64,000 nucleotides of DNA from an uncultured Methanosarcinales archaeon (GCA_964402995.1 CAYOEA010000002.1:36558-100557); one strand, 5' to 3'. Shown: positions 530 through 17,021, numbered from the stretch's first letter. Notes: a model not told the origin generated them from the sequence alone. Numbers and translations: made by a program.

Positions 530-1477
530 TTAAAGTTTAATTCGCATCAAATCATAAGAACATTCTGCATTTGTAAAGAAATCTTTAATACTTGATTCTA
601 GAACTGATATATCTTTATAACGCTGAGAAAAGTGTGTTATGATTAAACGTTTGACTTCTGCATTTGTCGCAATTAAACCCGCATCAGCAGTTGTTAAATG
701 CTTATATTTTGCAGCATTCTCACTCATATCAGGAAGATAAACAGATTCAGAAATTAAAAGATCAGAGTTCTTTGCTAAATCTATTGCATTCTTATTTGGA
801 ATAGTATCAAACACAAAAGTTATTTTTCTACCTTTTTTTATAAAAGAAACATCGTCAGGCTCAATTAATTTACCATTGATAGTTACGGAGTTTCCATTTT
901 GAATTTCTCTCATAATAGGACCTTGAGTTAAACCTACTTCTTTTGCTTTTGCAAGTTTTATTTTTCTTTTATCCTTTTCTACAAATGAATAAGCCACACA
1001 AGAAGTTGTATGTTGCATGTTTGCTGCTTGAATATAATAATCATCAGTTTCTTTGATTGTTGTGAGTTCTTCTGGATCAAGTTCAGTAATTCTTAAATCT
1101 AAGTTCTCTTGCTCAAAAATTACAGAATCTAAAAGATGTTGAATGCTTTTTTTAGTTCCTATTGGACCATAAATTTCAATTTTTGGAGGAACATCTTTAT
1201 TTGATATTGTTTGTAAAAGACCAATTATACCGCCAACATGATCGCCATGCCAGTGAGTTATCAAAATAGTTGTAACTTTATTTCTATTAATGCCTGCAAG
1301 ATTCATTTGTCTTTGAGTTCCTTCGCCACAATCTATCAAAATGCCTTCTGACTGATATGACATGTAAATTGCTTGGACATTACGGTCCTTTGTCGGCACC
1401 ATACATGCCGTACCTAAAAAAGTTAGTTCCATTTTGTTTGATAAGAAGAGTTTGTTTATATTTGTTATTAAAAACAA
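530..1477 (-). CDS. rnz: ribonuclease Z (tRNA 3' endonuclease, metallo-beta-lactamase fold)
   Basis: HxHxDH motif ITHWHGDHVGG. MELTFLGT…P N-terminus is typical of RNase Z. The true start is probably the internal Met at ~1432 (MELTFLGTA). Confidence 0.8.
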   Translation of the reverse strand: MFLITNINKLFLSNKMELTFLGTACMVPTKDRNVQAIYMSYQSEGILIDCGEGTQRQMNLAGINRNKVTTILITHWHGDHVGGIIGLLQTISNKDVPPKIEIYGPIGTKKSIQHLLDSVIFEQENLDLRITELDPEELTTIKETDDYYIQAANMQHTTSCVAYSFVEKDKRKIKLAKAKEVGLTQGPIMREIQNGNSVTINGKLIEPDDVSFIKKGRKITFVFDTIPNKNAIDLAKNSDLLISESVYLPDMSENAAKYKHLTTADAGLIATNAEVKRLIITHFSQRYKDISVLESSIKDFFTNAECSYDLMRIKL

Positions 1478-1495
1478 AAACAGAACATATAAAAA

Positions 1496-1769
1496 CTTAC
1501 ATAAATAGAAAAATATATGAAAAAAGATATAAATGAACTTACATAAATAGAAACAGAAATAAATAAAGAGAACAAAAAATAAAACCTACATAAATAGAAT
1601 AAAATATGAAAAAAGAATAAATAATCCTACATAAATAGAAATTTAACCACAAACAATATAAACTCAAAAAAACAAACAATATAAACCAATAAACAGATCA
1701 AGAAAACTAATTCTTACATACATAGACAAACACAATAATATTTATAAAGGAATTCTTACATGAATAGAG
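1496..1769 (+). repeat. array of six ~15-bp direct repeats (CTTACATAAATAGAA consensus) with ~42-bp phasing in the divergent promoter region
   Basis: Copies at 1496, 1538, 1585, 1626, 1713 and 1755. Four are exact or near-exact (c[ct]tacataaatagaa), two are degenerate (cttacatacatagac, cttacatgaatagag). Spacings are 42, 47, 41, 87 (=2x43) and 42 bp. Confidence 0.6.
1741..1748 (+). promoter_or_regulatory. putative TATA box for the 1776 gene (leaderless or short-leader transcript)
   Basis: tttataaa lies ~28 bp upstream of ATG 1776, which is typical archaeal TATA-to-start spacing for leaderless mRNAs. Confidence 0.3.
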
Positions 1770-1775
1770 TATACT

Positions 1776-2330
1776 TTGAGAGCACGACGAGACGACAAAA
1801 AAGAGAAATATAGAGATTACAATAGAATAAGTGCTCAAAGACTCGAAAAAGATCAAGATAAACTCAAATTACAACTTCTAATTGAAACATTAACTTCAAA
1901 GTACAATATAGATCCTAAAGAACTACTTTTGGAAGTAGAAAAAGATAGTCTAATTCCAACCAGCATATTCTCAGAAAAATTAAGCACATTAGAAACAGTC
2001 GTCAAATATCTAAAAGAAAATAACGGATTAAAAAATAAAAAAATCGCAGAGCTTGTCGGAAGAGATTCAAAATCAGTATGGCAAGCATATAATTCTTCAA
2101 AGAAAAAACAAGCAGAAAAAATCATTGTGAGCGATATAAAGCACACATTCCCAATTTCTATTCTTAAAAACAAGCAGCTCAGCGTTCTAGAAAACGTCGT
2201 CGCGTATCTCAAAGAACAAGGACTGCAAAACAAAGAGATTTCTGAGTTAATTAAACGTGACCAGAGAACTATTTGGACTGTGCTAAACAGAGCTAAAAAT
2301 AAACGAGGAGGAAATGAAAACATTAGGTAA
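1776..2330 (+). CDS. small protein with two internally repeated HTH-like modules (putative DNA-binding regulator)
   Basis: Two ~55-aa repeats: …LETVVKYLKENNGLKNKKIAELVGRDSKSVWQAYN and …LENVVAYLKEQGLQNKEISELIKRDQRTIWTVLNR. These resemble sigma-70 region 4 / LuxR-type HTHs. Its stop overlaps the start of the giant gene (co-transcription likely). Confidence 0.5.
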   Translation: MRARRDDKKEKYRDYNRISAQRLEKDQDKLKLQLLIETLTSKYNIDPKELLLEVEKDSLIPTSIFSEKLSTLETVVKYLKENNGLKNKKIAELVGRDSKSVWQAYNSSKKKQAEKIIVSDIKHTFPISILKNKQLSVLENVVAYLKEQGLQNKEISELIKRDQRTIWTVLNRAKNKRGGNENIR

Positions 2331-5300
2331 TAAAATCGGACGCCTGGAAAAAGAATTCACACTCCTACATAGTTCTAAGAAGAATCTGTTAGCACAGAAA
2401 AGAAGAAAGGAAATCACCAAGAAAGATCATGATTTCCATAAAAAAATAAACAATAGTGAAAGTCACAAAAAAGCATACCATAAAGAAATTAGTGAGCAGA
2501 TAAACACTGCAAAAATAGAAAGAGAAAGAAGAAGAGAAAGCAATAAAGAAAGAGAAAGAAAACCTGCAATTATTTTGATGATTGGATTAATAGTAATCTT
2601 AAGCACATTAGTAATTGCAAACTTTGAAGGAATAACGGGGTTTGCAACATTTACCAGAGAACAAACATTAGTCATAGAAATGAATGAAAGTTATGGACCT
2701 GGACAATATGAGATTGAATTAGATCTAGAAAATGCAACCAGCCTGAGAGTTAGTGGAATAGGCACAGGAGAGGGAAGAATAAAAGTCTTGCTTGAAATGA
2801 ACGGAACAAATCTAACAGTATTAGATAGATATGTGAATGAAGAAGGAAGAAATAATTTAATTACAGGAATGGTTGTTGGAGATGAATTTACACTACTAGA
2901 AGATATGCTAGAAAATAATGCGAACGAAGAAGTAATAGAAGAAGAAAATATCACTGAAATAGTTGATAATATAGAAACTAATAATGAAACAATAGAAATT
3001 GTGGAAGAAAATAATACAAGCACAAATGCAACAACTAATGAAACAATTAATGAAAACATAAGTGCAAGTATAAATGAAAACATAACAAATAATACCAGCT
3101 CAAATATTACAGATATAAACATAACAATCCCTATTGAGCTAAATACTAGTGAAGAACTAAACATCACATTAAATGAAAGTATAAACTTGAGTTTAAACGA
3201 TACAATAGAAATAGATAATGAACTAAATATTACATTAAATGAAAGTAACAATGAGTCTACAAACATAAGTACAAATGTGACGAGTAACACCACAAGCAAG
3301 GTTACAACCAATGTAACGACTAATACTAGTATGAATTTGACAGTTAATGCTACGACTAATATTACAAGTAATATTACAAGCAATTTAACAAGCAATATAA
3401 GTGCAAACATAAGTGAAAATATAACTAGTAATGCAAGCTCAAATATTACAGACATAAACATAACAATCCCTATTGAGCTAAATACTAGTGAAGAACTAAA
3501 CATTACATTAAATGAAAGTATAATTGAAGAACTAAAAACGATATTTGAAGATGAATGTTTAGAAACATGTGTTGCAACAATATCCAATGCTAAACTAATA
3601 ATCATAGTTGAAGACATGGACTTTACATTAACTCAGATTGTTTATACTAAAAAAATAGATAACAAACCCCCAGTACAAACTAAAAACTTAGAAAACATAA
3701 GCTTCTACAAAGAATATGAAATAAATGCAAGCGAATATTTTGCAGACCCTGACGGAGATGAACTAATCTATGATGTAAAAAGATTAGATGATATAAGAAC
3801 AGTAATTATTGGAAATAGAATAATCTTTAGAACAAATACTACTGGAACATACGAAACTTATGTCTACGCAACAGATGGAGGAAGTTTAGTTAAGAGTAAT
3901 ACATTTACAATTAGAACTGGACTAGAAGAAAATGTGAGTTTAGTGACAGAAAAATCAATAAAAGAAAATGTAACTCAACTACAAGCAGAAATTGGTAAAC
4001 CAGTTAAATGGATTAAAACAGTACAATTAGATAATATTACAGACACAATAATTAACTTACCTGAAAGTTCAAGAAATATAATTGTAAAAGACAACAACAA
4101 CAAACAAGTAAAAGAAGAAAAAATTAGTGTTGTAGAAAATAAAACAAGAAGAACATTAATAGAATATGAAGTAGATAAAGAAATTGAATTAATCAAAAAG
4201 AAAATAGAAAAAGCAGATAAGAAAGATAATTCAAAAGAATCAGGAAAACTAAAATCAAGTCTCATCAAACTAAAAGTAAAAAAACAAGAAATAGTTAGTG
4301 GACAAAAACTAACAGATAAAGGAGAAGAAACTACAGGATCAAAAATACTAAATAGCATCAGAACAACTGTTGCAAACTCAGACTTAACTGGAAGAATAAT
4401 ACAAGAAATACCAGATGCAAAACTAGATCCAAGCATAAAACCAATTGAAGAAGCAACTATTATTCCAGAAGATAAAATAATCGTGATTGAAGATGAACTT
4501 CTTGAAGAAAACATTGTTGAAATTGTAGAAGAAATTATCGAAACAAATGAAACAATAGTAATTGAAGAAAATGTTAAAGAAATAGTAAATGAAACTGTAG
4601 AAAAAATTACTGATATAATTGAAGTAATAGAAGAAGAAAATATTACAACGATTAATTCAACAATTGATGTTGAACTAAATAGCACTTCAGAAATAAAAAT
4701 TATTGAAGAAGAAAATAATACATTTCTAACAAATATTACAGAAACAAATAACACAACAAGAAACGCAACAATCCAAATAGAAAATAATACGAAAGAAATT
4801 ATTGAAGAAATAATTAATGAAACTAATAAAACAAATGAAACTATAATAGTTGAAGAAATTATTGAAGAAGAAACGCTAATAGAAACGCCTGATATAACAC
4901 AAGAAATAATTATTAGTGAAGAAGTGATAAATGAAACTGAAGACATAATAATTGGAGAAGAAAATAATTATAATTCACCAACAAATATTGAAGAAGGAAT
5001 AGGAATTATAATTGAAGAAACAGCTGAAGAATATATCATAGAGTATGAAACGGAAGCTCCAGAAATTATAGAAGAAGAAATTAATGAATATAAGAAGAGA
5101 GTTACAATTAGTTCCACATTACACTACACAGAAATCTTATCCTACACAAACATAACACCATCACCAAAAGAAAGCATAGGATTACACTGGTTAGTAAACG
5201 GAAGCAGAATAGAAATGAAGAACATCACTTATGTGGATGCAAATGAAGATGGTCTGGTTGAAAAAATAGCATGGATCACACCACACTTATCAAACCAAAC

Positions 5301-8214
5301 ATTCGAAATTACAATCACAGTTCTGAATGTACAAAGTTACCCTCTAGTTGGAGCATATTGGACTGTTAGGTTAAATACTAGCGGACAAGCAGACTTAGAA
5401 ATTACACCATTTAACTACACCACATTCTGGCCAGAACCAAACGACTTTGGAAACTTAGAACATGACTTAGAATTTGTTAACTTTAGTTGTGGAAATACAA
5501 TGTTAAATGATCAACTATGGTTTACAACAAATGTGAGTTGTGCTGAATTAAATAATATTAGTTGTTATTATGAAAATGAGAGTAATAGAACAATTGCAAA
5601 GTATGATGAATTAATGCAAACAAATCTTTCAACTTGGATGGAATCAATAATTTTATTCAACTACACTTGTGATGAAAATGTTAGTTTATGGACTGATAGA
5701 GTAAAAACACCAGGAGCACACTATATTAACTTCACATTCGGGCCAAGCAGTGCACATGCACAAAACTGGGCTGTAAAGAGCGCCACATCTATAACCACTA
5801 ACGTCACAGTCAATATTAGAAGACCAGGCGGAACAAATGTGATTACAGGAGGTTTCATGACTCTAAGCGGCACAAGCGGGGATACAGAAGAATGGCACAA
5901 CACAACATGGACTTATGATTACTCCAAAGACTGCCAAGAAGAAGGAGACTATGAATTATATGTAGAAGTACTAAGTGAAGGAAATTCAGAAACTCAAAAA
6001 GACATAAGTGGACTTTCAGAAGCAATAACTATGTGGGTCGATCAATGTACAATTGCAGGACTTGGATATGCAGATTGTAGAGTTCATGTATCAAGTAAAA
6101 ACACGAATGCAGACAAAGACTTTGGTACAAGACTAGATTTAATGAATAGTAATTGTAATATCACAAGTGTAACGCACGAAGGATCAGAGTACCATACAAC
6201 AGAAGGACTAAATAGTTGTACTGGTGGAGAATGTGGAACTTGGATAGAAATATACCATGACGTTGGAACAAGCGACAATACAGACGATACTTACTTCGAT
6301 ATAAGATGTGATGATGGAGCTGATGATAACACTCCAATGATGATGGATTTAGCAGAAACATGCGGACCTTCAAGTTGTGGAGAAGCAACAGTAGGACTTG
6401 GAGGATATGATGATTGTTCAAATCCAACATGTACAGATGGGTACACTTACATTGGAGATGATAGTGTAGAATCACTTGGAGGATTCACACTCATAACTTA
6501 TGAAATAGGAATCTTAGATACATGGGATTGGAATACTGTAACAACATACAATATAGATTGGGACTCAAGTCAAGAAGATTGTGACTGTTACAAAGGAGTA
6601 GGATATTGGAATATTGGTGGAGATGTAGTAACTTGTTGTGAAGATGATGGAAGTGAAAATAAAACAACAAGAAATGTAGATGAAAGTACAATAGATAATG
6701 GATATACAGATAATACAAGCGATGATGGATGTTGTGATACAAATGATAAATGTGTAGATACAAGTATTTGTTATATATCAGGCGATGTTAGCACAGACAT
6801 AGATAGTGATGGAGATGAAGATTATTGTAATGCTGGAACATGGTTTGATTGTAATACAGACTCAGAATGTGCAATAGGAATATTCTGTAATGCAACTAAT
6901 GATTGTGAAGTATCATACATAAACTTAAGTTATGAATTACCAACACCAACAACAAATACAATTCAAATTAACAATCAACAAATAATTAATGTAAGTGTTA
7001 GTTCATATGGAAGCACAGTAGACTCATGTACGCTAGAATGGAATGGTATAAATGAATCAATGGGGAAAATCGGAAGCGGAACAGAAGTAAGTTGCAATAT
7101 TACAAAAACAACTATTGATGGAACAACTTATAATTACAAAGTCTTTGCAAATAATTCAGTTGGAATAATAAATAATACTGCTCTAAGAAGTTTCACAGAG
7201 AATAGTTTACCAACAATAACTTACCATAACATAACACCTGTTGCACCAGATACAACTGATGACTTAAATTGTTCATTTACACTTATAGATTCAGAAAATA
7301 ATAGTTTAATTGCATATTATCAATGGTATAATGGTACAAATCAAACATTATCAGGATCAGTTCCAGTAACAAGTGGAATCATAGGCTCAACAATCCTAAG
7401 CGCAGAAAATACAAACAAAGATGAAAACTGGACTTGTGAAATAACACCTTATGACAACTATGAAAATGGAACTGCAAGTAATATATCTAGAATCATAAAT
7501 AATAGTGTCGCATCGGTAACATTGTTAACGCCTACTGATGGACAAACATTAATAGAATATACTAATAGAACACCAAGACTTACTTGGACTGCAAGCGATC
7601 CAGACGGAGATAATATGAGTTACACTATATGGATATCTGAACAATCAGACTTTAGTACAATTAATCAAACAACAAGCGGAATTTCAGATATAAAATATAC
7701 TATGAATGATCTTAAAGTGGACACAATATATTATTGGATAGTTGAAGCATTTGATGGAGTTTCAAGAGTAAATGCCACTTCCGAGTTCAACTTCACAATA
7801 CAAAGTTACGAATCAATAACATTTGTAGTTGATACAGTAAACTTCCCTGAATTAGAAATTGGAGAAACAAACGATACAGACACAGATGCAATCACACCAT
7901 TTAAGATTAGAAATACAGGAAACGTTTTTGTGAACTTAAGCATAAATGCAAGTGAACTATGGGATGGTGCGAGTGCAGCCATACCAAGTGTATACTATAG
8001 ATTTAAGGCCGATGAAGTAAGTGGTGAAGAAGGAGCATTTACAACCGGAAGCAGCACTATGAGTTGGACTAACATGGTTTCAACAGCCACATCGTTCATT
8101 AAAGACTTGAACTTTGACTATGATACAGATGAAGCAGAAATTGATCTTTATCTGACAGTACCTCCACATGAAATTGCAGGTCAGAAAAATTCAACAATAA
8201 GTATAAGCACATAG
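2314..8214 (+). CDS. giant (1966 aa) membrane-anchored surface protein with a sequon-dense stalk, Ig/PKD-like domains and Cys/Asp-rich modules
   Basis: The N-terminus is basic, followed by a TM/signal-anchor PAIILMIGLIVILSTLVIANF. A long run of N-x-S/T sequons follows (NITSNITSNLTSNISANISENITSNASSNITDINIT…). Later segments include DPDGDELIYDV and TWTASDPDGDNMSYTIWI (PKD/FN3-like). Aa ~1230-1530 is a Cys- and Asp-rich block (CEDDGSENK…CCDTNDKC…). Confidence 0.8.
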   Translation: MKTLGNKIGRLEKEFTLLHSSKKNLLAQKRRKEITKKDHDFHKKINNSESHKKAYHKEISEQINTAKIERERRRESNKERERKPAIILMIGLIVILSTLVIANFEGITGFATFTREQTLVIEMNESYGPGQYEIELDLENATSLRVSGIGTGEGRIKVLLEMNGTNLTVLDRYVNEEGRNNLITGMVVGDEFTLLEDMLENNANEEVIEEENITEIVDNIETNNETIEIVEENNTSTNATTNETINENISASINENITNNTSSNITDINITIPIELNTSEELNITLNESINLSLNDTIEIDNELNITLNESNNESTNISTNVTSNTTSKVTTNVTTNTSMNLTVNATTNITSNITSNLTSNISANISENITSNASSNITDINITIPIELNTSEELNITLNESIIEELKTIFEDECLETCVATISNAKLIIIVEDMDFTLTQIVYTKKIDNKPPVQTKNLENISFYKEYEINASEYFADPDGDELIYDVKRLDDIRTVIIGNRIIFRTNTTGTYETYVYATDGGSLVKSNTFTIRTGLEENVSLVTEKSIKENVTQLQAEIGKPVKWIKTVQLDNITDTIINLPESSRNIIVKDNNNKQVKEEKISVVENKTRRTLIEYEVDKEIELIKKKIEKADKKDNSKESGKLKSSLIKLKVKKQEIVSGQKLTDKGEETTGSKILNSIRTTVANSDLTGRIIQEIPDAKLDPSIKPIEEATIIPEDKIIVIEDELLEENIVEIVEEIIETNETIVIEENVKEIVNETVEKITDIIEVIEEENITTINSTIDVELNSTSEIKIIEEENNTFLTNITETNNTTRNATIQIENNTKEIIEEIINETNKTNETIIVEEIIEEETLIETPDITQEIIISEEVINETEDIIIGEENNYNSPTNIEEGIGIIIEETAEEYIIEYETEAPEIIEEEINEYKKRVTISSTLHYTEILSYTNITPSPKESIGLHWLVNGSRIEMKNITYVDANEDGLVEKIAWITPHLSNQTFEITITVLNVQSYPLVGAYWTVRLNTSGQADLEITPFNYTTFWPEPNDFGNLEHDLEFVNFSCGNTMLNDQLWFTTNVSCAELNNISCYYENESNRTIAKYDELMQTNLSTWMESIILFNYTCDENVSLWTDRVKTPGAHYINFTFGPSSAHAQNWAVKSATSITTNVTVNIRRPGGTNVITGGFMTLSGTSGDTEEWHNTTWTYDYSKDCQEEGDYELYVEVLSEGNSETQKDISGLSEAITMWVDQCTIAGLGYADCRVHVSSKNTNADKDFGTRLDLMNSNCNITSVTHEGSEYHTTEGLNSCTGGECGTWIEIYHDVGTSDNTDDTYFDIRCDDGADDNTPMMMDLAETCGPSSCGEATVGLGGYDDCSNPTCTDGYTYIGDDSVESLGGFTLITYEIGILDTWDWNTVTTYNIDWDSSQEDCDCYKGVGYWNIGGDVVTCCEDDGSENKTTRNVDESTIDNGYTDNTSDDGCCDTNDKCVDTSICYISGDVSTDIDSDGDEDYCNAGTWFDCNTDSECAIGIFCNATNDCEVSYINLSYELPTPTTNTIQINNQQIINVSVSSYGSTVDSCTLEWNGINESMGKIGSGTEVSCNITKTTIDGTTYNYKVFANNSVGIINNTALRSFTENSLPTITYHNITPVAPDTTDDLNCSFTLIDSENNSLIAYYQWYNGTNQTLSGSVPVTSGIIGSTILSAENTNKDENWTCEITPYDNYENGTASNISRIINNSVASVTLLTPTDGQTLIEYTNRTPRLTWTASDPDGDNMSYTIWISEQSDFSTINQTTSGISDIKYTMNDLKVDTIYYWIVEAFDGVSRVNATSEFNFTIQSYESITFVVDTVNFPELEIGETNDTDTDAITPFKIRNTGNVFVNLSINASELWDGASAAIPSVYYRFKADEVSGEEGAFTTGSSTMSWTNMVSTATSFIKDLNFDYDTDEAEIDLYLTVPPHEIAGQKNSTISIST

Positions 8215-8235
8215 ATTTAAAGTCAATAATTAATC

Positions 8236-8243
8236 TTTTTTTT
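8236..8243 (+). terminator. T-rich tract (T8) downstream of the giant gene, putative archaeal terminator
   Basis: cttttttttc lies immediately 3' of the stop at 8214. Confidence 0.3.
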
Positions 8244-8292
8244 CATTAAATTAAATATATTTAAAAAAGAATTCAAATTAATAAAAATTAAA

Positions 8293-8955
8293 ATGGTAAC
8301 TAAAAAAGCAGATAAAAAAATTACTGAAATTAAAATAAAAGTTAAAAAGAGCTCTGCTGCTGTAAACAAAGTTATTGTTAAAAGAATTATTAAGATAGAA
8401 AAAGTAAAAACTAATGGTACAAAAGAAGATAAACTTCCAAGAACAGTATTCGCACAAGAAAGAGTTTTAATGGAAGATTGTGATGAAGCTAGAGAACTAT
8501 ACAATAAAGGCGTTTATGGAAAAGTACTAAGTGATAAACAACTTCAATTATCATTACAAGAGGCATTATATTTACTTGATAAAAATAAAATTGTGATTAG
8601 TGATGGAAGGAAGAAAAGTTTAACATTTGAAGAATTCTTAAAAAAAGCAACTAAAAAAGAACCAAATTTCTGGATAAGATTCTGTGTCTACAAAGATATG
8701 AGAAGTAGAGGCTACATAGTCAAAACAGCACTTAAATTTGGAGCTGACTTTAGAATCTATGATAGAGGAATTAAACCTGGTGAAGACCATGCAAGATGGA
8801 TAGTATATCCTGTACATGAAGGAAGCACACTAACATGGTATGATTTCGCTGCTAAAAATAGAGTTGCGCACTCAACAAAAAAAAGATTAATGATGGGTGT
8901 TGTAGACGACGAAGGAGATGTAACTTACTGGGAAATCAAGTGGATGAGACCATAA
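8293..8955 (+). CDS. endA: tRNA-splicing endonuclease (EndA) with a lysine-rich N-terminal extension
   Basis: The C-terminal catalytic domain pattern RGYIVKTALKFGADFRIY…GEDHARWIVYPV…KKRLMMGVVDDEGDVTYWEIKW matches the EndA Tyr/His/Lys region. The N-terminal ~50 aa are K-rich. Confidence 0.7.
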   Translation: MVTKKADKKITEIKIKVKKSSAAVNKVIVKRIIKIEKVKTNGTKEDKLPRTVFAQERVLMEDCDEARELYNKGVYGKVLSDKQLQLSLQEALYLLDKNKIVISDGRKKSLTFEEFLKKATKKEPNFWIRFCVYKDMRSRGYIVKTALKFGADFRIYDRGIKPGEDHARWIVYPVHEGSTLTWYDFAAKNRVAHSTKKRLMMGVVDDEGDVTYWEIKWMRP

Positions 8956-9031
8956 GTTACAGATAAAATTCTATCTTTTAAAAAAATGAAAAAATCGTAT
9001 TTAGTCTTAAATCTCTCAAAAGATTTAAAAA

Positions 9032-10060
9032 TTGAGTTCTATTAAGAAAAGCATGCCGACAAAAGAAGAAGTTCTAAAGGTGTTAAGAGAACAAGGACCA
9101 ATCATCCCAAACCAAATAAAAAGGTTAGTTGGAGGAGATACTGTTCTTATAGGTGCAATGCTCTCAGAATTCATTCATAATGGCATAGCAAAATACAGTC
9201 ATCTAAAAGTTGGCAGTTCCCCAGTTTATTATACTAAAGGTCAAGAATCAAAGCTTCTAAACTTCAAGAAATATCTAAACCAAAAAGATCAAAGAACAGT
9301 GGACTTACTTCGCGAACATAAAATTCTAAAAGATTCAGACCAAGAAATGTTAATTAGAGTAAGTTCTAGAGAAATAAAAGATTTTGCAAAACAAATAGAA
9401 GTCACAATTAAAGGTGAAAAAGTTCTTTATTGGAAATGGTATTTAACATCAAAAGAAGAAGCAGAAACATTAATTCGAAAAGAATTGAACAAATGGGATA
9501 AACCAGTAAAAGAAGAAACAAACAGTAGTAAAGCTACTGAAGCACCAAAACCTAAAGTTTTGAGTGAACCAACAGTAGTTAAAACTGAACAAAAAGAAAC
9601 ACGAAATATAGAACAAGAAAAGCCAAAAGAAGTACGAGTTAAATCAGAACCAATACAAGTAAAAAAAGAACAAACAACAAGTATCCAAACAGAAAGAAAA
9701 CCAGCTTTTGAACAAGAACAAACAAGAATGTCACAAGAAGCAGTTAGTAGTGATGATTTTTCAAAACAACTCCATGATTTTTTTAATAAAAAAGAAGTGA
9801 AAGTACTTGAAGAAAATATTATTAGAAAGAATTCAGAAATTGAACTTAAACTACTTATTCCTAGTGCAGTCGGAAATATAGAGTACTTTTGTAAAGCAAA
9901 AAATAAAAAGAAATGTAACGATGGAGATTTAAGTAGTGCATATCTAAAAGGTCAAATGACAAAACTTCCAGTAATGTTCATTACTACAGGTGATGTTACT
10001 AAGAAAGCCAAAGATATGTTAATGCATGAGTTTAAAGGATTAGTGTTAAAACAAATATAA
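9032..10060 (+). CDS. hypothetical protein: tandem winged-helix N-terminus, K/E-rich linker, C-terminal Mrr-like (PD-(D/E)xK?) domain
   Basis: Two wH-like segments (…VLREQGPIIPNQIKRLVGGDTVLIGAMLSEF…VYYTK, then …QRTVDLLREHKILKDSDQEMLIRVSSREIKDFA…). The C-terminus …EIELKLLIP…YFCKAK…LPVMFITTGDVTKKAKDML resembles the end of the Mrr catalytic domain (…ifiTtg.ft..A…). Confidence 0.4.
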   Translation: MSSIKKSMPTKEEVLKVLREQGPIIPNQIKRLVGGDTVLIGAMLSEFIHNGIAKYSHLKVGSSPVYYTKGQESKLLNFKKYLNQKDQRTVDLLREHKILKDSDQEMLIRVSSREIKDFAKQIEVTIKGEKVLYWKWYLTSKEEAETLIRKELNKWDKPVKEETNSSKATEAPKPKVLSEPTVVKTEQKETRNIEQEKPKEVRVKSEPIQVKKEQTTSIQTERKPAFEQEQTRMSQEAVSSDDFSKQLHDFFNKKEVKVLEENIIRKNSEIELKLLIPSAVGNIEYFCKAKNKKKCNDGDLSSAYLKGQMTKLPVMFITTGDVTKKAKDMLMHEFKGLVLKQI

Positions 10061-10078
10061 AAAAATCAGGTTTTAAAA

Positions 10079-11113
10079 ATGGGAACAGCAATAACTGAAA
10101 TTCTAATAAAAAAAGAAATTAGTATAAAAGATTTACAAGGACAAATTCTAGCAGTTGATACATTTAACATGCTATACCAATTTATTTCTAGCATAAGACA
10201 ATCAGATGGAACACCATTGACAGATTCTAAAGGCAGAATAACAAGTCACTTAATTGGATTATTTAACAGAGTAACAAAATTAATGACAGAAGGAATAAAA
10301 TTCATCTTTGTATTTGATGGCGAAGTTCCAGACCTGAAGAAAGCAGAAAGAGAAAGAAGAAAATTAGCAAAACTTGAAGCTCAAGCGAAATATGACGCAG
10401 CAAAACAAGAAGAAAATATTGAAGAAATGAAAAAATATGCTTCAAGAACTTCAAAACTAACATCAAACATGGTAGATGAAGCAAAAGAATTGATTAGAGC
10501 ACTTGGAATGCCAATAGTAGATGCACCAAGTGAAGGCGAAGCACAAGCAGCATATATAGTTTCAAAAGGAGAAGCATACGCAATAGTTAGCCAAGATGCA
10601 GACTCGCTTGTTTTTGGAGCACCAATAGTTATTAAAAATTTAACAATTGGCGGAAAGAAAAAAATGCCAGGAAGTTATGTGTATAAAAATATAAGTCCTG
10701 AAACATTAAGTTTAGCTGAGAACTTGAATAATTTGAAAATAACCAATGATCAATTAATAGTGCTTGCAATGCTTGTAGGAACTGATTATAATATTGGCGG
10801 AATAAAAGGAATAGGACCAAAGAAAGCTTTAAAACTACTAGAAACATATAAAGAAGATTATGAGAAAATATTTGAGGAAGCAAAGTGGAATGATAACTTT
10901 GACTTTGAATGGAAATTAGTATATGACACCATAAAAAATGTGAAAATTACTGACGATTATGATTTAACATTTGAAAAGATTGATACAGAAAAAATAATTG
11001 AAATATTAGTAGAAAAACATGACTTTTCAAAAGAAAGAGTTGATGGAACAATTGCAAAATTAATGAAAGGAATGCAACCAAAAACTCAGAAAGGACTTGG
11101 AGATTTCTTTTAA
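10079..11113 (+). CDS. fen: flap endonuclease 1 (FEN-1)
   Basis: N-domain …ILAVDTFNMLYQF… and I-domain …FVFDGEVPDLK…GMPIVDAPSEGEAQAAY…SQDADSLVFG… are classic XPG/FEN1 motifs. An HhH follows: GTDYN…GIGPKKAL. Confidence 0.9.
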   Translation: MGTAITEILIKKEISIKDLQGQILAVDTFNMLYQFISSIRQSDGTPLTDSKGRITSHLIGLFNRVTKLMTEGIKFIFVFDGEVPDLKKAERERRKLAKLEAQAKYDAAKQEENIEEMKKYASRTSKLTSNMVDEAKELIRALGMPIVDAPSEGEAQAAYIVSKGEAYAIVSQDADSLVFGAPIVIKNLTIGGKKKMPGSYVYKNISPETLSLAENLNNLKITNDQLIVLAMLVGTDYNIGGIKGIGPKKALKLLETYKEDYEKIFEEAKWNDNFDFEWKLVYDTIKNVKITDDYDLTFEKIDTEKIIEILVEKHDFSKERVDGTIAKLMKGMQPKTQKGLGDFF

Positions 11114-11235
11114 ATTTAGAAATAAAAAAAGAGGATTAAGATTAATTGGAATAGTATGTTTAGATATTAAGAATACGCTGCTTCTAAAAATATGATGATA
11201 TTAGGCAGAGTATTTATTTTATTATAAATTAGAAA

Positions 11236-12105
11236 ATGAATTGGTTAATGTTTGCAATAGGAGCGGCAATATTCACTGCAGCTGCAGCACTAACTCAAAA
11301 AAAAGTTTTGAATAAAGAACATGCACTTGAATTCTCAACAGTACTTGCAATACTTAATTTTGCAATTGTGTTTGTTTTCTTACCACAAACAAATTTTGAT
11401 ATTGGATGGGATAAATACTTACTAATCTATGGAGTATCATGGTTTGCAGCAATAGCATATTTAATGGTTGCAAAAGCAGCAAGACATAGCGAAATATCAG
11501 CAGTATCACCAATAATGAATTTTGGACCTGCAATAACTGCAAGCATGGCATTCTTAGTTCTTGGAGAAAAGATTTCAGCTTTACAAGTTGCAGGAATAGG
11601 ATTACTCATTTTAGGAATGTATGTTTTAGAAATAAAAAAAGACTTGAAAAACTTCTTAGATCCATTCAAAGAATTTGTAAAATCAAAATATAATCACTTC
11701 ATAATATTCGCATTAATTCTATATGGTTTTACAAGCATAGCAGACAGATATATAATGACGCATGGAGTTGGAGTTGAAACATACCAATTCATAGTGCATG
11801 GTTTTGTACTTATGAATTATTTGCTAATCATAACAATTTTTTATGATGGAATAAAAGGCGTAATTAATGGATTTAAGAGCGCAGGTAAATGGATTCTATT
11901 GGTATCAATATTTACTGTAGCATATAGATATATGCAAGCAAAAGCTGTTTCTATGATGTATGTAGGGCTTGTTTCTGCAATTAAGAGACTATCAAATGTG
12001 GTAATCACTTTAGTTGGTGGAAAAATATATCATGAAAAGAACGTTCTGATAAAAGTCTTAGGGTGTATCATTATGATTTGGGGCGCAGTCTTTATAATAA
12101 TCTAA
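11236..12105 (+). CDS. EamA/DMT-family-like polytopic membrane transporter
   Basis: 289 aa, ~10 predicted TM helices in a two-half arrangement typical of the drug/metabolite transporter fold. No soluble domains. Confidence 0.5.
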   Translation: MNWLMFAIGAAIFTAAAALTQKKVLNKEHALEFSTVLAILNFAIVFVFLPQTNFDIGWDKYLLIYGVSWFAAIAYLMVAKAARHSEISAVSPIMNFGPAITASMAFLVLGEKISALQVAGIGLLILGMYVLEIKKDLKNFLDPFKEFVKSKYNHFIIFALILYGFTSIADRYIMTHGVGVETYQFIVHGFVLMNYLLIITIFYDGIKGVINGFKSAGKWILLVSIFTVAYRYMQAKAVSMMYVGLVSAIKRLSNVVITLVGGKIYHEKNVLIKVLGCIIMIWGAVFIII

Positions 12106-12168
12106 TTATAATCAAATAAAGTCTTTAATTTATATAAATTTAAAAAAGGAAATTACCTTCTAAAGAAA

Positions 12169-13923
12169 ATGCTTGGTGCAAAAACAGAAATCAGAAATGC
12201 TGAAGAATTAAAATCCCATCTAATTAATAATGGATTAATGGATTTTAATAGAAGAAATAAAGTAGAAGATGGAATGATAATATTCCCCATTACCAAGTCA
12301 TTTGAAAAAGAAAGAGTGATTATTTTTGAAGTTGATTTACCTACAAAAAATAAAAAAACTAGCTGGATAGATGAACTAAATAAAATATTAAGCGCTGAAG
12401 AATTAAAAGAAGTTAAGACTGCGCAAGACGTATTAGGTAATATAGCAGTAATTGAAATTCCTGAAAACTTAATTTTAAAAGAAAAAGAGATTGCAGAAGC
12501 ACTATTAAAAACAAATAAACATGTTAAAACAGTACTAAAAAAAGCAGGCGAACATGATGGAATATTTAGAACACAAAAAATGCAGTGGCTTGCAGGCGAG
12601 AATACAAAAGAATCAATCTATTTAGAAAATAACGCCAAAATAAAAATAAATGTAGAAGAAGTATATTTCAGTCCAAGACTTAGCACTGAAAGAAAAAGAA
12701 TAGCAGGGCAAGTAAAACCAGGCGAAGAAGTTCTTGTAATGTTTAGTGGAGCTGCACCATACCCTTGCGTATTATCAAAAAATACAGATGCAAAAAGAAT
12801 AATTGGAATAGAACTAAATCCTGTTGGACACAAATATGGAATTGAAAATTTAAAATTAAATAAAATTCATAATGTAAGTTTAATTAATGGAGATGTAAAT
12901 TCTGTTTTACCAAAAATGTATTCTGAAATTATAGGATTAAAATCAGCAATATTAGATGAAGAAATGAATGTTCGACTAGCACAAAATCCTAAAGTGTTTG
13001 AATTTCATTTATTTGAAGATGACCTTCCTAAAAATAAAAATAAACTTGAAGAATGGATTATAAAATTAAAAGAAAAAGGAATAGAAGTTATTATACACGC
13101 ACCATTTAGAAAACCAAATGGTGAAAGTTTCAAATTTAATAAAAAAAACATTGAACATGAATTAAAAATAACTTCAATCATAGGAGAACTATGTAAACAA
13201 TATGATGCTAAAGCAATAATACACCCAACAAATACTGATTCAAAAGAAAACGATGATGAAAATATATTAATACAAAATCTAAAAAAATTAAGAAACTATT
13301 ATGATTATTTTTATTTTGAAAATGAAAATAAAGGAATGTTTGCAGAAACAAAACAAATAATTAGGATAGCAAAAAATGCAGGAATAAAAAATATTTGTAT
13401 AGATCTTGCACATGCATACATCTACAACGATAGTAATGATAAAATTGAAGAACTAATAAAAGAAGTCCAAAAACAATTTAATACATATTTCCACATAGTA
13501 GATAATAATAAAAAAACACATAGTTGTAAAGTTGGAGCAGGTTTTGTTGATTTTGAAAGAATCATGCCTTATGTCACAAAAGGAATAGCTGAAGTTAGAA
13601 GCGAAGATGAAAAAAAAGCAACAGAGATGATCGAAAGTTATAATAAATTAATCGATATAATTCCACAATTTGATAGAATATGTATGCCACTACCAAAATC
13701 AGCTGAAGACTTTCTAGAAGCAGCATTTAGCGTATCAAAAAATGGAACTATAATTCATTTTTATGATTTTTTACATGAAACAGAATTTGATTTATGTGAA
13801 GAAAAAGTAAAGAATGCATGTGAGAAATCAGGAATAAAATATGAAATTATAAGTTTCAATAAATGCGGCCAATACAGCCCTGGTAAATTTAGAGTTTGCT
13901 TAGATTTCAAAATCATAAAATAA
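12169..13923 (+). CDS. Trm5/Taw2(TYW2)-type tRNA methyltransferase fused to a C-terminal xylose-isomerase-like / AP-endonuclease-2-type TIM-barrel domain
   Basis: N-terminal half: …YFSPRLSTERKRIA…VLVMFSGAAPYPCVL…IIGIELNP (Met-10+/Trm5 signature with SAM motif I). C-terminal ~320 aa: …IEVIIHAPFRKPNG…AKAIIHPTNT…ICIDLAHAYIY… resembles sugar-phosphate isomerase / endonuclease IV TIM barrels. Confidence 0.55.
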   Translation: MLGAKTEIRNAEELKSHLINNGLMDFNRRNKVEDGMIIFPITKSFEKERVIIFEVDLPTKNKKTSWIDELNKILSAEELKEVKTAQDVLGNIAVIEIPENLILKEKEIAEALLKTNKHVKTVLKKAGEHDGIFRTQKMQWLAGENTKESIYLENNAKIKINVEEVYFSPRLSTERKRIAGQVKPGEEVLVMFSGAAPYPCVLSKNTDAKRIIGIELNPVGHKYGIENLKLNKIHNVSLINGDVNSVLPKMYSEIIGLKSAILDEEMNVRLAQNPKVFEFHLFEDDLPKNKNKLEEWIIKLKEKGIEVIIHAPFRKPNGESFKFNKKNIEHELKITSIIGELCKQYDAKAIIHPTNTDSKENDDENILIQNLKKLRNYYDYFYFENENKGMFAETKQIIRIAKNAGIKNICIDLAHAYIYNDSNDKIEELIKEVQKQFNTYFHIVDNNKKTHSCKVGAGFVDFERIMPYVTKGIAEVRSEDEKKATEMIESYNKLIDIIPQFDRICMPLPKSAEDFLEAAFSVSKNGTIIHFYDFLHETEFDLCEEKVKNACEKSGIKYEIISFNKCGQYSPGKFRVCLDFKIIK

Positions 13924-13990
13924 TAACAATAATAAAAAATGATTCTTAAAAATATATGGAAGTTAAATTAAAATAGACAATAGAATAAAA

Positions 13991-14070
13991 GACGCGCTCC
14001 CTAGTTACTTCCGTTCTTCATCAGGACGAAGTCCCTCAGCGGGTGTTCACTCGGTCATCACGCGCAGACA
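13991..14070 (-). ncRNA. candidate C/D-box-like sRNA (C, D', C' boxes present; D box non-canonical)
   Basis: A GC-rich 80-nt island sits in an AT-rich convergent intergenic region. Minus strand reads ugucugcgcg-UGAUGA-(15 nt)-CUGA-(12 nt)-UGAUGA-(13 nt)-CUAG-ggagcgcguc. The C box is GUGAUGA, D' is CUGA and C' is UGAUGA. The D-box position holds CUAG rather than CUGA. The GC-rich flanks can pair as a terminal stem. Confidence 0.4.
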
Positions 14071-14189
14071 AAATGAAAGGAAGACAGTTTATATACTTAT
14101 TCTTTCTTAACTTTAATGAAACCTATAATTTGATGAGAAAAGAATAAGAACTAGTTTATATAATAAAAAATTATTAGAATTTTTAATAA

Positions 14190-15320
14190 CTATCCATAGA
14201 TAAGATAATTGAGCATATCAGTATCTTCATTCTTAATTTTTTTAACTGCTGCAATTAAATCTTCAGATTCAACTTTAGTTTTACCTTTACGAATAGCAAA
14301 ATAACCTGCTTCAGTACAAACAGCTTTAATTTCAGCACCAGAGAAATTTTTCATAGATTTAACAAGTTTATCAACATCTAATTTTTTATCAATAGTCATA
14401 TTTTTCGTATGAATTTTGAAGATTTCTTTCAAACCTTCTTCGCCAGGATTATCAACTTCAATTAAACGGTCTAATCTACCTGGTCTTACAATTGCAGGAT
14501 CAAGAATATCCAGTCTGTTAGTACAACCAATAATTTTAACATTATCAAGAGGTTTAAAACCATCTAACTCAGCAAGTAACTGCATGAATGTTCTTTGAAC
14601 TTCTCTTTCACCAGAAGTACCGACATCAATTCTTTTAGCAGCTAACGAATCTAATTCGTCAATAAAAATAATTGAAGGAGCACGTTCTCGTGCAATTTGA
14701 AATATTTCTTTAACAAGTTTCGCACCTTCACCAATGAACTTTTGAACAAGTTCAGAACCTACGATTTCAATAAACGTAGATTTAGTTGATGAAGCAACAG
14801 CTTTTGCAAGAAGAGTCTTTCCAGTTCCTGGAGGACCATGAAGTAAAATACCTTTTGGAGGATGAATACCTACCTTTTTGAATAATTCAGGTTTGTTTAA
14901 TGGAAGCTCAATAACTTCTTTAATTTCTTCAATTTGTTTATCTAAACCACCAATTTCAGCCCAAGGAACGTTTGGATCATCCATTATAACAAACTGTTCA
15001 ACATTAAATTTTTTAGACATTTCAACTTTATCTATAACAGTTAAATTCTTTTGTTCAAGAAGAACTGAATCACCGGAAGAAACACCCTTTAAATCATTTG
15101 AAATATCTACATAAAAACTATTTCCATTTGGTAATTTAACAACTGCTTGTTGATCATGAAGACTAATTAATTCACCAATAAGAAGAGCAGGAGATTTAAA
15201 CCTATCAACTTCATTTTTTAATTGAGAAACTGTTTCTCGAAGTAATCTATTCTCCTCTTCCATATCATTTGAATCCATGGTATATGAGAACATAGCTTTA
15301 TCTTTATTCATAATAAACAA
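14190..15320 (-). CDS. pan: proteasome-activating nucleotidase (PAN, AAA+ ATPase)
   Basis: N-terminal coiled coil. Walker A GPPGTGKTLLAKAVA, Walker B IIFIDELD. Second region of homology present. Confidence 0.85.
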   Translation of the reverse strand: MFIMNKDKAMFSYTMDSNDMEEENRLLRETVSQLKNEVDRFKSPALLIGELISLHDQQAVVKLPNGNSFYVDISNDLKGVSSGDSVLLEQKNLTVIDKVEMSKKFNVEQFVIMDDPNVPWAEIGGLDKQIEEIKEVIELPLNKPELFKKVGIHPPKGILLHGPPGTGKTLLAKAVASSTKSTFIEIVGSELVQKFIGEGAKLVKEIFQIARERAPSIIFIDELDSLAAKRIDVGTSGEREVQRTFMQLLAELDGFKPLDNVKIIGCTNRLDILDPAIVRPGRLDRLIEVDNPGEEGLKEIFKIHTKNMTIDKKLDVDKLVKSMKNFSGAEIKAVCTEAGYFAIRKGKTKVESEDLIAAVKKIKNEDTDMLNYLIYG

Positions 15321-15337
15321 AAAATGATGAGGGTTTT

Positions 15338-16384
15338 TTAAAGTTTTGGTATTATGATTAATTTTTTAGGAAATGAAGTTAAAATTTTATGCCCTGTTTT
15401 AGTAACTAAAACATCATCTTCAAATCTAATGCCAAAAGAAGAATAAATTCCAGGCTCAATAGTAATTACCATGCCTGCCTTTAAAATTTCTTTTGATTTT
15501 AAAGATACTCTTGGAGATTCATGAACATCAAGACCAAGACCATGACCTAAACTATGAATGAAAAATTTGTCAATGATGCCTAATTCCTTTCTAACAAAAG
15601 TTTCTAAGTCTGTGACCTTAACATTTGACTTAACTAAAGCAATTGCTTTCTTTTGAATTGAAAGTAAAAAACGATAAGTTTTTCTTTCTTGATCAGACGG
15701 TTTTCCAATATAAAACGTTCTTGTAATATCAGCACAATAACCTTTATATTTTAAACCCATATCAATAACTAAAAAACCATCCTTGATTTTAGAATTCGAT
15801 GCGTAGTGTGGCTTTGAAGCGTTAATACCGGATGCAACAATAGGTTCAAAAGAAATTTCACAATCTAAATCAATAGCTCGTTTCTTAATGTATTTTCTAA
15901 TATCATCTTCATATTTAAAGTTAAGACTCTTGAAGTTTTTTATTATTTCTTTTAGAACTTTTTCAGATAGTTTGCATGCATGAATAATATTTTTTATTTC
16001 ATCAGAGGATTTTGTTAATCGGAGTTTTGAGAGAATATCTGAGACATCAACAGTTGAAGTTATTTTATCAAGTTTGATTTTAAAAGATGCTGGAACAAAA
16101 GGAAAATTTAAACCAATAGTTTTGAATTTTGTCAAAGATTCTTTTAATAATTTTAAAGGTGTTTTTGAACTAACTATAGTACAAGGAAGAGAAATATCTT
16201 CTAGAAGACTTGTGAAAATTATGGGTTTTCCAACATTTGGAATTAGGATGTAAGATTCACCAATAGCTTCTTTTAGAAAATAAAATGCATTCACATCATC
16301 AGATCTAAAAACACAAGCATCAATTTTATTTTTACTCAAATAAGTTTGAAATTTATCTAAAGACATTTTATTTAGGACCTCCAA
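15338..16384 (-). CDS. M24-family Xaa-Pro aminopeptidase / prolidase-like
   Basis: Metal-ligand region …GYCADITRTF… and HSLGHGLGLDVHE with …ITIEPGIY… is typical of the M24 pita-bread fold. Confidence 0.75.
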   Translation of the reverse strand: MEVLNKMSLDKFQTYLSKNKIDACVFRSDDVNAFYFLKEAIGESYILIPNVGKPIIFTSLLEDISLPCTIVSSKTPLKLLKESLTKFKTIGLNFPFVPASFKIKLDKITSTVDVSDILSKLRLTKSSDEIKNIIHACKLSEKVLKEIIKNFKSLNFKYEDDIRKYIKKRAIDLDCEISFEPIVASGINASKPHYASNSKIKDGFLVIDMGLKYKGYCADITRTFYIGKPSDQERKTYRFLLSIQKKAIALVKSNVKVTDLETFVRKELGIIDKFFIHSLGHGLGLDVHESPRVSLKSKEILKAGMVITIEPGIYSSFGIRFEDDVLVTKTGHKILTSFPKKLIIIPKL

Positions 16385-17021
16385 AAATCAATGAACCAAC
16401 ACGAACCATATTGGCTCCTGATTCAATTGCAACAAGGAAATCATTACTCATACCCATCGATAGATACTTCATTTCAATATTTGGAATGTTTAATTCTTTT
16501 ATTAAATCAAAGACTTTTTTCATCCGATCAAAATAAGGTTTTGCTTTGACACTTGATACATTAAGAACAATAGTCATTAAACCTAAAACTTTAATATTTG
16601 AAAGAGTGGAAAGCTCTTCTAATAAAGGAACTATTTCGTTTTTTGAAATTCCATGTTTGTTTGGATCATTTGAAATGTTTACCTGAACTAAAACAGCCAT
16701 CACTTTATTTTTAGACTTACACACAGAATCAATTTTCTTAGCTAAAGCCAACGAATCTAATGATTGAATCATATCAAAAGTTTCAACCGCATCGCGCACT
16801 TTATTTCTTTGTAAATGACCAATAAGATGAAGTTTAACTTCGCCTTTAATTTCGAGTTTCTTTTCTTTAGCAACAGCAACCCTGCTTTCTGCAATATCAG
16901 TAACACCTAAAAATACTGCTTGATTAATTTCACGAATAGATGCATATTTAGTTACAGCGACTAATTTTGCCTTATGTAAAACTAAAGATTTAACTTTATC
17001 AAGACCATTTAAAAGACTCAT
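16368..17021 (-). CDS. YggS-family pyridoxal-phosphate homeostasis protein (alanine racemase N-terminal-like fold)
   Basis: …LVAVTKYASI… (PLP Lys) …HLIGHLQRNKV… is the YggS/PROSC pattern. ~217 aa. Confidence 0.75.
   Translation of the reverse strand: MSLLNGLDKVKSLVLHKAKLVAVTKYASIREINQAVFLGVTDIAESRVAVAKEKKLEIKGEVKLHLIGHLQRNKVRDAVETFDMIQSLDSLALAKKIDSVCKSKNKVMAVLVQVNISNDPNKHGISKNEIVPLLEELSTLSNIKVLGLMTIVLNVSSVKAKPYFDRMKKVFDLIKELNIPNIEMKYLSMGMSNDFLVAIESGANMVRVGSLIFGGPK

Follow-up and report, generated by a model that had tools for sequence, protein, structure and literature searches.

Trm5 is among the best-studied tRNA modification enzymes, and the solved archaeal structures (PaTrm5b, PDB entry 5YAC; PaTrm5a with tRNA, 5WT1; MjTrm5 with tRNA, 2ZZN) share one architecture of three domains, D1-D2-D3, which is uninterrupted. 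Here we describe a Trm5-type gene in a 64,000-nucleotide stretch of DNA from an uncultured Methanosarcinales archaeon (GCA_964402995.1, CAYOEA010000002.1:36558-100557; the whole stretch is referred to as the window). Its product keeps the D1-D2-D3 plan, but a 247-amino-acid (aa) enzyme domain with a TIM-barrel fold breaks D3 between strands beta3 and beta4. The gene lies at 12169..13923 on the plus strand in AT-rich DNA (window GC content, 24-34%) and, as an earlier note made from the sequence alone had stated, is a real open reading frame (ORF), uninterrupted and coding for 584 aa plus stop. A protein identical to the ORF product (P0001) is found on three public contigs from several sources. 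Literature searches found no publication describing the architecture, and a Foldseek search with the full-length model found no solved structure that spans both the Trm5 part and the barrel, in agreement with the note's remark that the combination is not known from characterized Trm5 or Taw2 enzymes. A Trm5 with a whole second enzyme nested in its Rossmann fold is apparently an undescribed variant.

The earlier note had read the first ~270 aa as Trm5 and the remaining ~320 aa as the barrel, a layout that the alignments redraw. In a phmmer search against PDB sequences, the Trm5 match came in two pieces, with query residues 2-250 aligned to residues 19-258 of P. abyssi Trm5b and residues 499-582 aligned to 260-344; the match to Trm5a was split in the same way. 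Because the Trm5 match splits around aa 252-498, this alignment places the barrel inside the methyltransferase domain and not as an appendage at its C terminus, the last 86 aa being Trm5 again. The insertion point lies between the "GD" strand (Rossmann beta3) and the catalytic "DRIxMPLPK" strand (beta4). When aa 252-498 were removed in silico, the remaining 337 aa gave a single ungapped alignment with PaTrm5b (E = 1.7e-55) and aligned likewise ungapped with PaTrm5a (4e-52) and MjTrm5 (1.9e-29). The full-length AlphaFold2 model (predicted local distance difference test [pLDDT], 93.7; predicted template modeling score [pTM], 0.84) has the methyltransferase helix 243-253 running into barrel strand beta1 (255-259) and the last barrel helix (485-495) returning to Rossmann strand 501-506. 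Its Trm5 part superposes in Foldseek on the solved Trm5b, Trm5a-tRNA, and MjTrm5-tRNA structures (TMt 0.71-0.77). With its N and C termini adjacent, the barrel could sit in a loop and leave the host fold undisturbed.

The host part carries the Trm5/TYW2 signature that the note had named. Pfam TRM5-TYW2_MTfase matched aa 150-252 (profile positions 2-105 of 164) with an E value of 1.4e-37 and 129.6 bits (gathering score, 28), and TYW2_N_2 matched with an E value of 4.7e-16 and 59.1 bits (gathering score, 27.7). Domain D1 (aa 1-60; 12169..12348, plus strand), which we take to be the tRNA-elbow-binding domain as in solved Trm5, aligns with D1 of PaTrm5b, PaTrm5a, and MjTrm5; Pfam Trm5_N reached 20.6 bits over aa 5-47, slightly under its gathering score of 22.7. 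Domain D2 (aa 69-146; 12373..12606) corresponds to TYW2_N_2. The N-terminal part of the class I methyltransferase domain D3 (aa 150-251; 12616..12921) contains Y166, E174/R175, the S-adenosylmethionine (SAM) motif VLVMFSGAAPYP, E215, and G-D242, and R134 is grouped with these residues. After the barrel (12922..13662), the C-terminal part of D3 (aa 499-584, 86 aa; 13663..13920) aligns with residues 260-344 of PaTrm5b and 249-332 of PaTrm5a and includes the catalytic loop D502-R-I-C-M-P507-L-P509-K510 (13672-13698). All of these features are on the plus strand.

By alignment, R145, Y177, E185/R186, D223, and D251 of MjTrm5 correspond to R134, Y166, E174/R175, E215, and D242, of which E215 is an acidic D-to-E change relative to D223. 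The residues R134, Y166, E174, R175, E215, and D242 and the tripeptide P507-L-P509 are invariant or at least 90% conserved (103 proteins; 50 homologs); in the set of 103 proteins, R503, M506, P507, L508, and P509 are invariant. R134, Y166, R175, and E215 are invariant too. The tripeptide P507-L-P509 matches MjTrm5 N265-L-P267, with Pro in place of N265. Thus, where the Trm5b loop reads NLPK, the window protein has M-P-L-P-K, and the replacement of Asn by Pro resembles the PTPK motif of active Trm5a (PaTrm5a) (PMC5714064). The insert-deleted protein scored 245.9 bits against the Trm5b equivalog NF047730 (cutoff, 600) and 215.1 bits against the Taw22-Trm5a equivalog NF047728 (cutoff, 550), so that it reached no NCBIfam Trm5 equivalog cutoff and is not assignable to subtype a or b. 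We regard the host as a divergent DPANN Trm5 that is closest to Trm5b and presumably active. Since the three domains and the catalytic and SAM-binding residues are intact, this resident archaeal tRNA G37-N1 methyltransferase should still make 1-methylguanosine at position 37 (m1G37).

The insert itself was confirmed as a TIM barrel of the AP_endonuc_2 type, as the note had proposed. Pfam AP_endonuc_2 ("xylose isomerase-like TIM barrel") matched at 41.8-44.3 bits (gathering score, 31.1), and the same model matched 32 of 35 inserts and 21 of 25 standalone relatives. AlphaFold2 modeled the insert alone as an eight-strand beta/alpha barrel (pLDDT, 95.7; pTM, 0.92). Foldseek searches with this model matched superfamily members at a probability of 1.00, with TMq values of 0.6-0.73 for UVDE, ketose 3-epimerases, YcjR, UlaE, Endo IV (endonuclease IV), and AsfvAP, the apurinic/apyrimidinic (AP) endonuclease of African swine fever virus (ASFV). 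The structure search backs the superfamily and gives no discrimination within it. At the sequence level, a profile built from 35 inserts matched only Endo IV/APN1/AsfvAP-type entries among PDB sequences at an E value of <0.02; M. tuberculosis End (5ZHZ) was the best match (1.4e-07), followed by APN1, the ASFV AP endonuclease, and Bacillus Endo IV. A sugar isomerase, the other identity suggested by the note, is one option by fold, but the closest sequence relatives are Endo IV enzymes. The barrel belongs to an uncharacterized subfamily of the Endo IV/xylose-isomerase-like superfamily.

Nine barrel residues (K258, E278, H310, H352, E384, D412, H415, H442, and E475) are 100% invariant in 103 fused proteins, and the same nine are 97-100% conserved over 131 fused and 59 standalone domains. 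Among the 103 fused proteins, P312, C410, Y440, and G472 are at least 96% conserved, and N385 and D445 are about 90% conserved. The subfamily signature reads K...E...HxP...H...EN...DxxH...HxxD...[HED]...E. The codons of this putative active site span 12940..13593 on the plus strand (checked codon coordinates: K258, 12940-12942; E278, 13000-13002; H310, 13096-13098; H352, 13222-13224; E384, 13318-13320; D412, 13402-13404; H415, 13411-13413; H442, 13492-13494; D445, 13501-13503; H451, 13519-13521; and E475, 13591-13593). The Endo IV ligands H69, H109, E145, D179, H182, H216, and E261 map to H310, H352, E384, D412, H415, H442, and E475, so that seven of the nine metal ligands have invariant barrel counterparts; for this mapping, the E. 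coli Nfo sequence was verified by its published ligand positions only. The remaining two ligands, D229 and H231, are where the metal-site mapping called for by the note is not strictly kept. At position 451, 96 of the 103 proteins have H, E, or D; this position may be the H231 equivalent, shifted by one residue. For D229, no counterpart is clear, and D445 is a candidate. Given the restricted choice at position 451 and the conservation of D445, a two- or three-metal center is likely in the predicted active site.

To place the architecture among its relatives, we drew on a homolog search that covered 5.8 billion proteins. It returned about 100 clusters with the same architecture (514-611 aa), showing 41-56% identity and labeled by their sources as Woesearchaeota or Nanoarchaeota (DPANN); the nested design is widespread in DPANN archaea of the Woesearchaeota type. 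Their current names are "hypothetical protein," "TIM barrel protein," and "tRNA (guanine37-N1)-methyltransferase." The same phyla also have insert-less Trm5 proteins of 332-350 aa, about 55% identical over the Trm5 parts. In an alignment of 120 proteins, every long protein has the insert at the position of aa 252-498, between "...GDV..V.P.(L/I)" and "FDRIxMPLPK," and 15 insert-less relatives lack the barrel, which sets its boundaries at aa 252/498. D1 (Trm5_N) is apparently absent from some fused proteins of 514-560 aa (P0002, P0007, P0029, P0032, P0035, and others); these span 87-90% of the query, and start-codon calls are a possible alternative cause. A genome-contig search with the full protein found one locus (L006; DASPMU010000108.1, 58.7 kb), which codes for a full-length insert-bearing Trm5 that is 45% identical over aa 1-583. 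The metagenome-assembled genome is labeled "Alphaproteobacteria bacterium," and the contig is probably a mis-binned DPANN contig.

The gene neighborhood ties the two forms of Trm5 together. Gene order in the window is tRNase Z-like, a 1966-aa ORF, EndA, an unknown ORF, FEN1, an EamA transporter, Trm5, PAN, an M24 peptidase, and YggS, with the conserved stretch spanning 530-17021; EndA (8293-8955) and FEN1 (10079-11113) are both real, as the note had it. The order tRNase Z-EndA-x-FEN1-Trm5-PAN-M24-YggS is shared with the insert-less loci L002/L003 (GCA_900089805.1), where Trm5 has 336 aa. The insert-bearing locus L001 (47% identity) has the same order in a looser form, with extra genes between and with no M24 or YggS in the stretch read, and L007 and L008 retain the FEN1-Trm5 adjacency and a nearby PAN gene. 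Since this synteny is common to insert-bearing and insert-less loci, both forms of Trm5 are orthologs at one locus. No TIM-barrel gene stands beside Trm5 at the insert-less loci L002/L003 and L007, which leaves a fusion of neighboring genes, considered in the note, unsupported; the barrel is nested, and the two halves do not occur as separate adjacent genes at these loci.

Presence and absence of the barrel vary between close relatives. Mean Trm5 distances among insert-bearing proteins (0.402), among insert-less proteins (0.392), and between the two classes (0.410) do not separate the classes, and three insert-less proteins have an insert-bearing nearest neighbor in 100% of bootstraps. Three independent pairs (P0026/P0116, P0011/P0112, and P0074/P0118) share 71-81% identity over Trm5 and are set apart solely by having or cleanly lacking the whole domain; the closest of them comes from syntenic loci whose adjacent FEN1 proteins have 90% identity. 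Comparison of the DNA of the closest pair showed no obvious remnant or microhomology accounting for a deletion. These pairs indicate that the domain has been removed, or reintroduced by recombination, repeatedly and recently and that Trm5 does not need it. We also counted Fitch state changes on a neighbor-joining (NJ) tree of Trm5 (11 observed; 9-12 in bootstraps; mean of 13.2 with random labels) and dropped the count as evidence, since poor resolution of the tree would yield a similar number. In an NJ tree of the barrel domain, internal branches were too short to decide the monophyly of the fused copies, and we make no claim on this point.

Within the insert-bearing proteins, insert and host have diverged together. 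Distances in the insert and in the Trm5 part are correlated (Pearson r = 0.64; 0 of 500 permutations reached this value), with a mean p-distance of 0.62 in the insert and 0.40 in the host part. This codivergence points to an old acquisition and mostly vertical inheritance. The GC content of the insert is 4-5 points under that of its flanks (0.247 versus 0.285 in the window gene; 0.309 versus 0.35-0.37 in L008). At the junctions (...PKMY/SEIIGLK... and ...LIDII/PQFDRI...), there is no Cys, Ser, or Thr on the N-terminal side, there is no His-Asn plus nucleophile on the C-terminal side, and no Hint Pfam match was found. A search for bulge-helix-bulge (BHB) introns yielded no BHB-like configuration, where shuffled sequences lead one to expect 0.5, and at -13.1 kcal/mol the duplex between the junctions is no better than in shuffles (-12.3 +/- 3.0 kcal/mol). 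The missing BHB geometry, the chance-level duplex, and the lack of intein hallmarks rule out removal of the insert at the RNA or protein level.

Relatives of the barrel also exist as separate proteins. A barrel profile search over 1.84 billion representatives gave 499 matches, among which 59 full-length standalone relatives (about 245-330 aa) keep the same invariant residues. The bacterial ones (P0165 and P0148) lie in a conserved operon of DegT, the TIM barrel, and a class III aminotransferase (Aminotran_3) on both contigs examined, together with an NAD-epimerase and a methyltransferase. The archaeal standalone gene is downstream of a TrmB-family regulator in three of three contexts; in two of these, a NUDIX gene or a CMAS-type methyltransferase separates the two genes. 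Searches for homologs of two standalone proteins found just 6 and 2 proteins, and a metagenome search with P0133 and P0135 found nothing. P0243 (399 aa), a distant relative of the barrel, appears by eye to be joined to a C terminus of the NeuB sugar-synthase type that contains a SAF domain, which again hints at sugar chemistry in the broader family.

The relative position of the two sites bears on how they might work together. The two forms of Trm5 are told apart by the junction residues 250/251, by residues 234 and 237 where beta3 begins, and by residues 210 and 212 where beta2 begins. At 237, proteins with the insert have a hydrophobic residue, and those without it have a charged one. As the two forms intermingle in the Trm5 tree, a consistent difference between them at a given position should point to the interface. 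In class I methyltransferases, the beta3-beta4 connection ends at the N-terminal (bottom) edge of the sheet, and SAM and the target base lie at the C-terminal edge. Fold topology and the covarying positions together support a barrel packed against the edge of the Rossmann sheet that faces away from the SAM/G37 pocket. Such packing would leave each active site to work by itself, without coupled chemistry at a single nucleotide, and independent operation is in our view most likely.

Our preferred explanation, to which we give a somewhat better than even chance, is that the protein is bifunctional and that the barrel is a multi-metal phosphoesterase. One polypeptide would then hold two enzymes, one folded within the other: a Trm5 and a metalloenzyme that is catalytically active and binds two or three metal ions. 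For the reaction and the substrate, we can offer a guess. The barrel would most likely be a phosphoesterase acting on a sugar-phosphate moiety with chemistry like that of Endo IV or CbiR, and a nucleic acid (tRNA or RNA ends or damaged DNA) is slightly favored over a small molecule as the substrate. The domain would be an accessory one, acquired early in a Woesearchaeales lineage and inherited mostly vertically, with several clean removals or regains by recombination. It is unlikely that Trm5 serves as a tRNA-docking platform for an Endo IV-like phosphoesterase acting on tRNA or RNA, which would make the barrel a new RNA-processing or repair family; such an enzyme may, for example, heal 2',3'-cyclic or 3'-phosphate ends or cut at damaged or abasic ribose in tRNA.

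Several observations weigh against a bifunctional phosphoesterase. The insert profile matched E. coli Nfo only at an E value of 0.8, far from canonical Endo IV, and no curated NCBIfam model, neither nfo nor a sugar-enzyme model, matches the barrel. Sugar epimerases score about as high as nucleases in the structural search, and nothing in the barrel strictly conserves the D229/H231 pair that belongs to the third Zn site of Endo IV. The three-metal ligand scheme of MbnB/TglH resembles that of Endo IV; since oxidases of this type share the scheme, the ligand pattern is no proof of hydrolysis. The contexts of the standalone genes lean to small-molecule or sugar-phosphate chemistry and are the main evidence against a nucleic-acid substrate. 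Repeated loss means that the second activity is dispensable or replaceable. Finally, the relative position of the two sites is deduced from fold topology and covariation.

The phosphoesterase reading competes with a sugar enzyme in the first place. We consider it rather unlikely that the barrel acts on small molecules as a sugar or sugar-phosphate isomerase, epimerase, or dehydratase, has no functional link to tRNA, and was captured in a permissive Trm5 loop, where the usefulness of both activities would have preserved it as a nested but uncoupled gene fusion. L-Ketose 3-epimerase, YcjR, and UlaE match at TM scores of 0.68-0.73, level with Endo IV; the bacterial DegT-TIM-Aminotran_3 operon, the archaeal TrmB-family regulator contexts, and the NeuB/SAF-like C terminus of P0243 would suit such an enzyme, as would the dispensability of the barrel for Trm5. 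Superfamily sugar enzymes have a single E-D-H-E metal site, whereas the barrel has invariant counterparts of the Zn1-site His residues (H310 and H352) and of H182 (H415), and neither an isomerase or epimerase among the profile-versus-PDB matches nor an NCBIfam sugar-enzyme match was found. A second step on G37 or m1G37, or on the anticodon loop held by Trm5 (wyosine-like or a cut-and-heal reaction near the 37/38 splice site), would be the coupled modification raised in the note and is improbable. In its favor, fused domains frequently belong to one pathway, the host is a tRNA-binding enzyme, the conserved neighborhood includes EndA and tRNase Z, and the Pro in the catalytic loop is Trm5a-like (PLPK versus PTPK; PMC5714064). 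Yet the insertion point and the covarying positions are found at the N-terminal ends of strands beta2-beta4, on the far side from the SAM/G37 pocket, the same neighborhood surrounds insert-less Trm5, the domain is cleanly lost in close relatives, and standalone relatives occur in bacteria, which lack Trm5 (PMC5424206).

That the insert is a selfish or mobile element, whether intein-like, intron-like, or an in-frame nuclease gene spreading between Trm5 alleles, seems very improbable despite the patchy distribution, the precise boundaries at one site, the nuclease-like fold, and the low GC content relative to the flanks. The at least nine state changes in every NJ bootstrap would also suit it, weakly in view of the random-label mean, the nearest-neighbor evidence being clearer. 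Intein junction residues, a Hint match, and BHB geometry are missing, and the duplex energy is no better than that of shuffles; the insert diverges more than the host (0.62 versus 0.40) and along with it, the opposite of recent homing, while catalytic residues are 100% conserved and the frame is always continuous. Recent homing was rejected because of the codivergence, the greater divergence of the insert, and the lack of decayed copies. Equally doubtful is a noncatalytic barrel, that is, a structural, oligomerization, or extra tRNA-binding module. Such a module would be compatible with a domain that is dispensable and evolves faster than its host, and in the fused proteins apparently without D1, the barrel might have taken over tRNA binding. 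Against this, the nine residues of the putative active site stay invariant among sequences that are only 28-50% identical, with the same set in standalone proteins, a pattern that marks an active site still at work. A frameshift, chimeric assembly, or miscalled ORF that joined separate genes, a concern of the note, has a negligible probability: the ORF is continuous, the identical protein is on three contigs, about 100 homologous clusters come from independent samples, and the two Trm5 halves flank the insert in the correct order. Nothing was found in favor of such an artifact, and the recurrent continuous architecture and the confident full-length model rule it out.

Some features of the surrounding DNA deserve mention in their own right. 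Between the Trm5 gene and PAN, an 80-nucleotide island (13991-14070, minus strand) with 50-57% GC stands out in DNA of about 25% GC. Its minus strand reads GUGAUGA (C box), 15 nucleotides, CUGA (D'), 11 nucleotides, CUGAUGA (C'), 14 nucleotides, and UAGGGA-GCGCG; its ends are complementary (GCGCG), and its fold energy is no better than that of shuffles. The note had proposed a guide small RNA next to the gene. The island has no canonical D box and no Rfam match and is partly consistent with such a guide RNA. In the whole 64 kb, ARAGORN found no tRNA genes, and no Rfam family reached its gathering threshold. The 1966-aa ORF (2314-8214, plus strand) has no Pfam domain above threshold and a weak Ig-like match; giant surface proteins are common in DPANN archaea, and this ORF may code for one. 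The unknown ORF between EndA and FEN1 (9032-10060, plus strand; 342 aa) has no Pfam match, and L002/L003 have a 300-aa unannotated gene at the equivalent position. In L007, the locus of the closest insert-less relative, a gene of the uracil-DNA glycosylase (UDG) family (11094-11687) lies directly downstream of Trm5 and FEN1 lies directly upstream, so that base excision repair genes flank the site that holds the Endo IV-like domain in relatives; this may be a coincidence.

The nested Trm5 is a natural, recurrent domain-in-domain insertion in a class I methyltransferase, in an enzyme for which a nested second enzyme is apparently undescribed. Relatives with and without the insert occupy orthologous loci, and these paired loci are a system for studying insertion tolerance, gain, and loss. 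A sharply conserved signature defines an uncharacterized subfamily of the Endo IV/xylose-isomerase superfamily, the function of which has become testable. The domain may represent a new tRNA-linked activity in DPANN archaea, a group with reduced genomes that are still little understood. If the barrel acts on RNA, it would be a new kind of tRNA-processing enzyme, and the standalone members are equally uncharacterized; if it is an unrelated metabolic enzyme, the result would still be a clear correction of annotation.

Compared with described members of the superfamily, the barrel stands nearest to Endo IV by sequence. The DUF692 iron oxidases (MbnB/TglH/ChrH) have a related TIM barrel (7TCW; TMq, 0.65), and two standalone relatives gave weak Pfam matches to the family (E = 0.011); the similarity is much weaker, and the barrel has neither a partner protein nor a context of ribosomally synthesized and posttranslationally modified peptides (RiPPs). 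UVDE (2J6V, 3C0Q, and 4GLE), a multi-metal TIM-barrel nuclease, gave the best Foldseek E values (8e-10) at TMq values of 0.60-0.62 but has no sequence-level match to the barrel, Pfam UvdE being unmatched and UVDE absent among the profile matches. Ketose 3-epimerases and sugar-phosphate epimerases (TM0416, 5B7Y; YcjR, 6WN6; UlaE, 3CQJ) have the same fold (TMq, 0.68-0.73) and share the superfamily E-D-H-E metal site with the barrel, with no sequence or profile match; theirs is the single site without the two extra His residues of the Zn1-type site of Endo IV. CbiR, a cobamide-remodeling phosphodiesterase, belongs to the AP endonuclease 2 superfamily, has conserved His, Asp, and Glu, and hydrolyzes a phosphoribosyl bond in a small molecule (PMC7733943). 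Its hydrolysis of a small-molecule phosphodiester is a precedent for non-DNA phosphoester substrates in the superfamily; CbiR belongs to a different clade, one tied to cobamide genes. Endo IV (Nfo/End/APN1; 5ZHZ, 1QTW, 1XP3, and AsfvAP 6KHY) shares with the insert the TIM-barrel superfamily and the motifs HxP[F/Y], HP, EN, CxDxxH, HxxD, and G.G..D; the HxP[F] of the barrel parallels the HAPY of Endo IV, with F313 at the place of Y72 (F in 56 of 103). Relative to Endo IV, the barrel is about 40 residues shorter, has an extra invariant Lys in beta1 and an extra invariant Glu in beta2, and is embedded in another enzyme.

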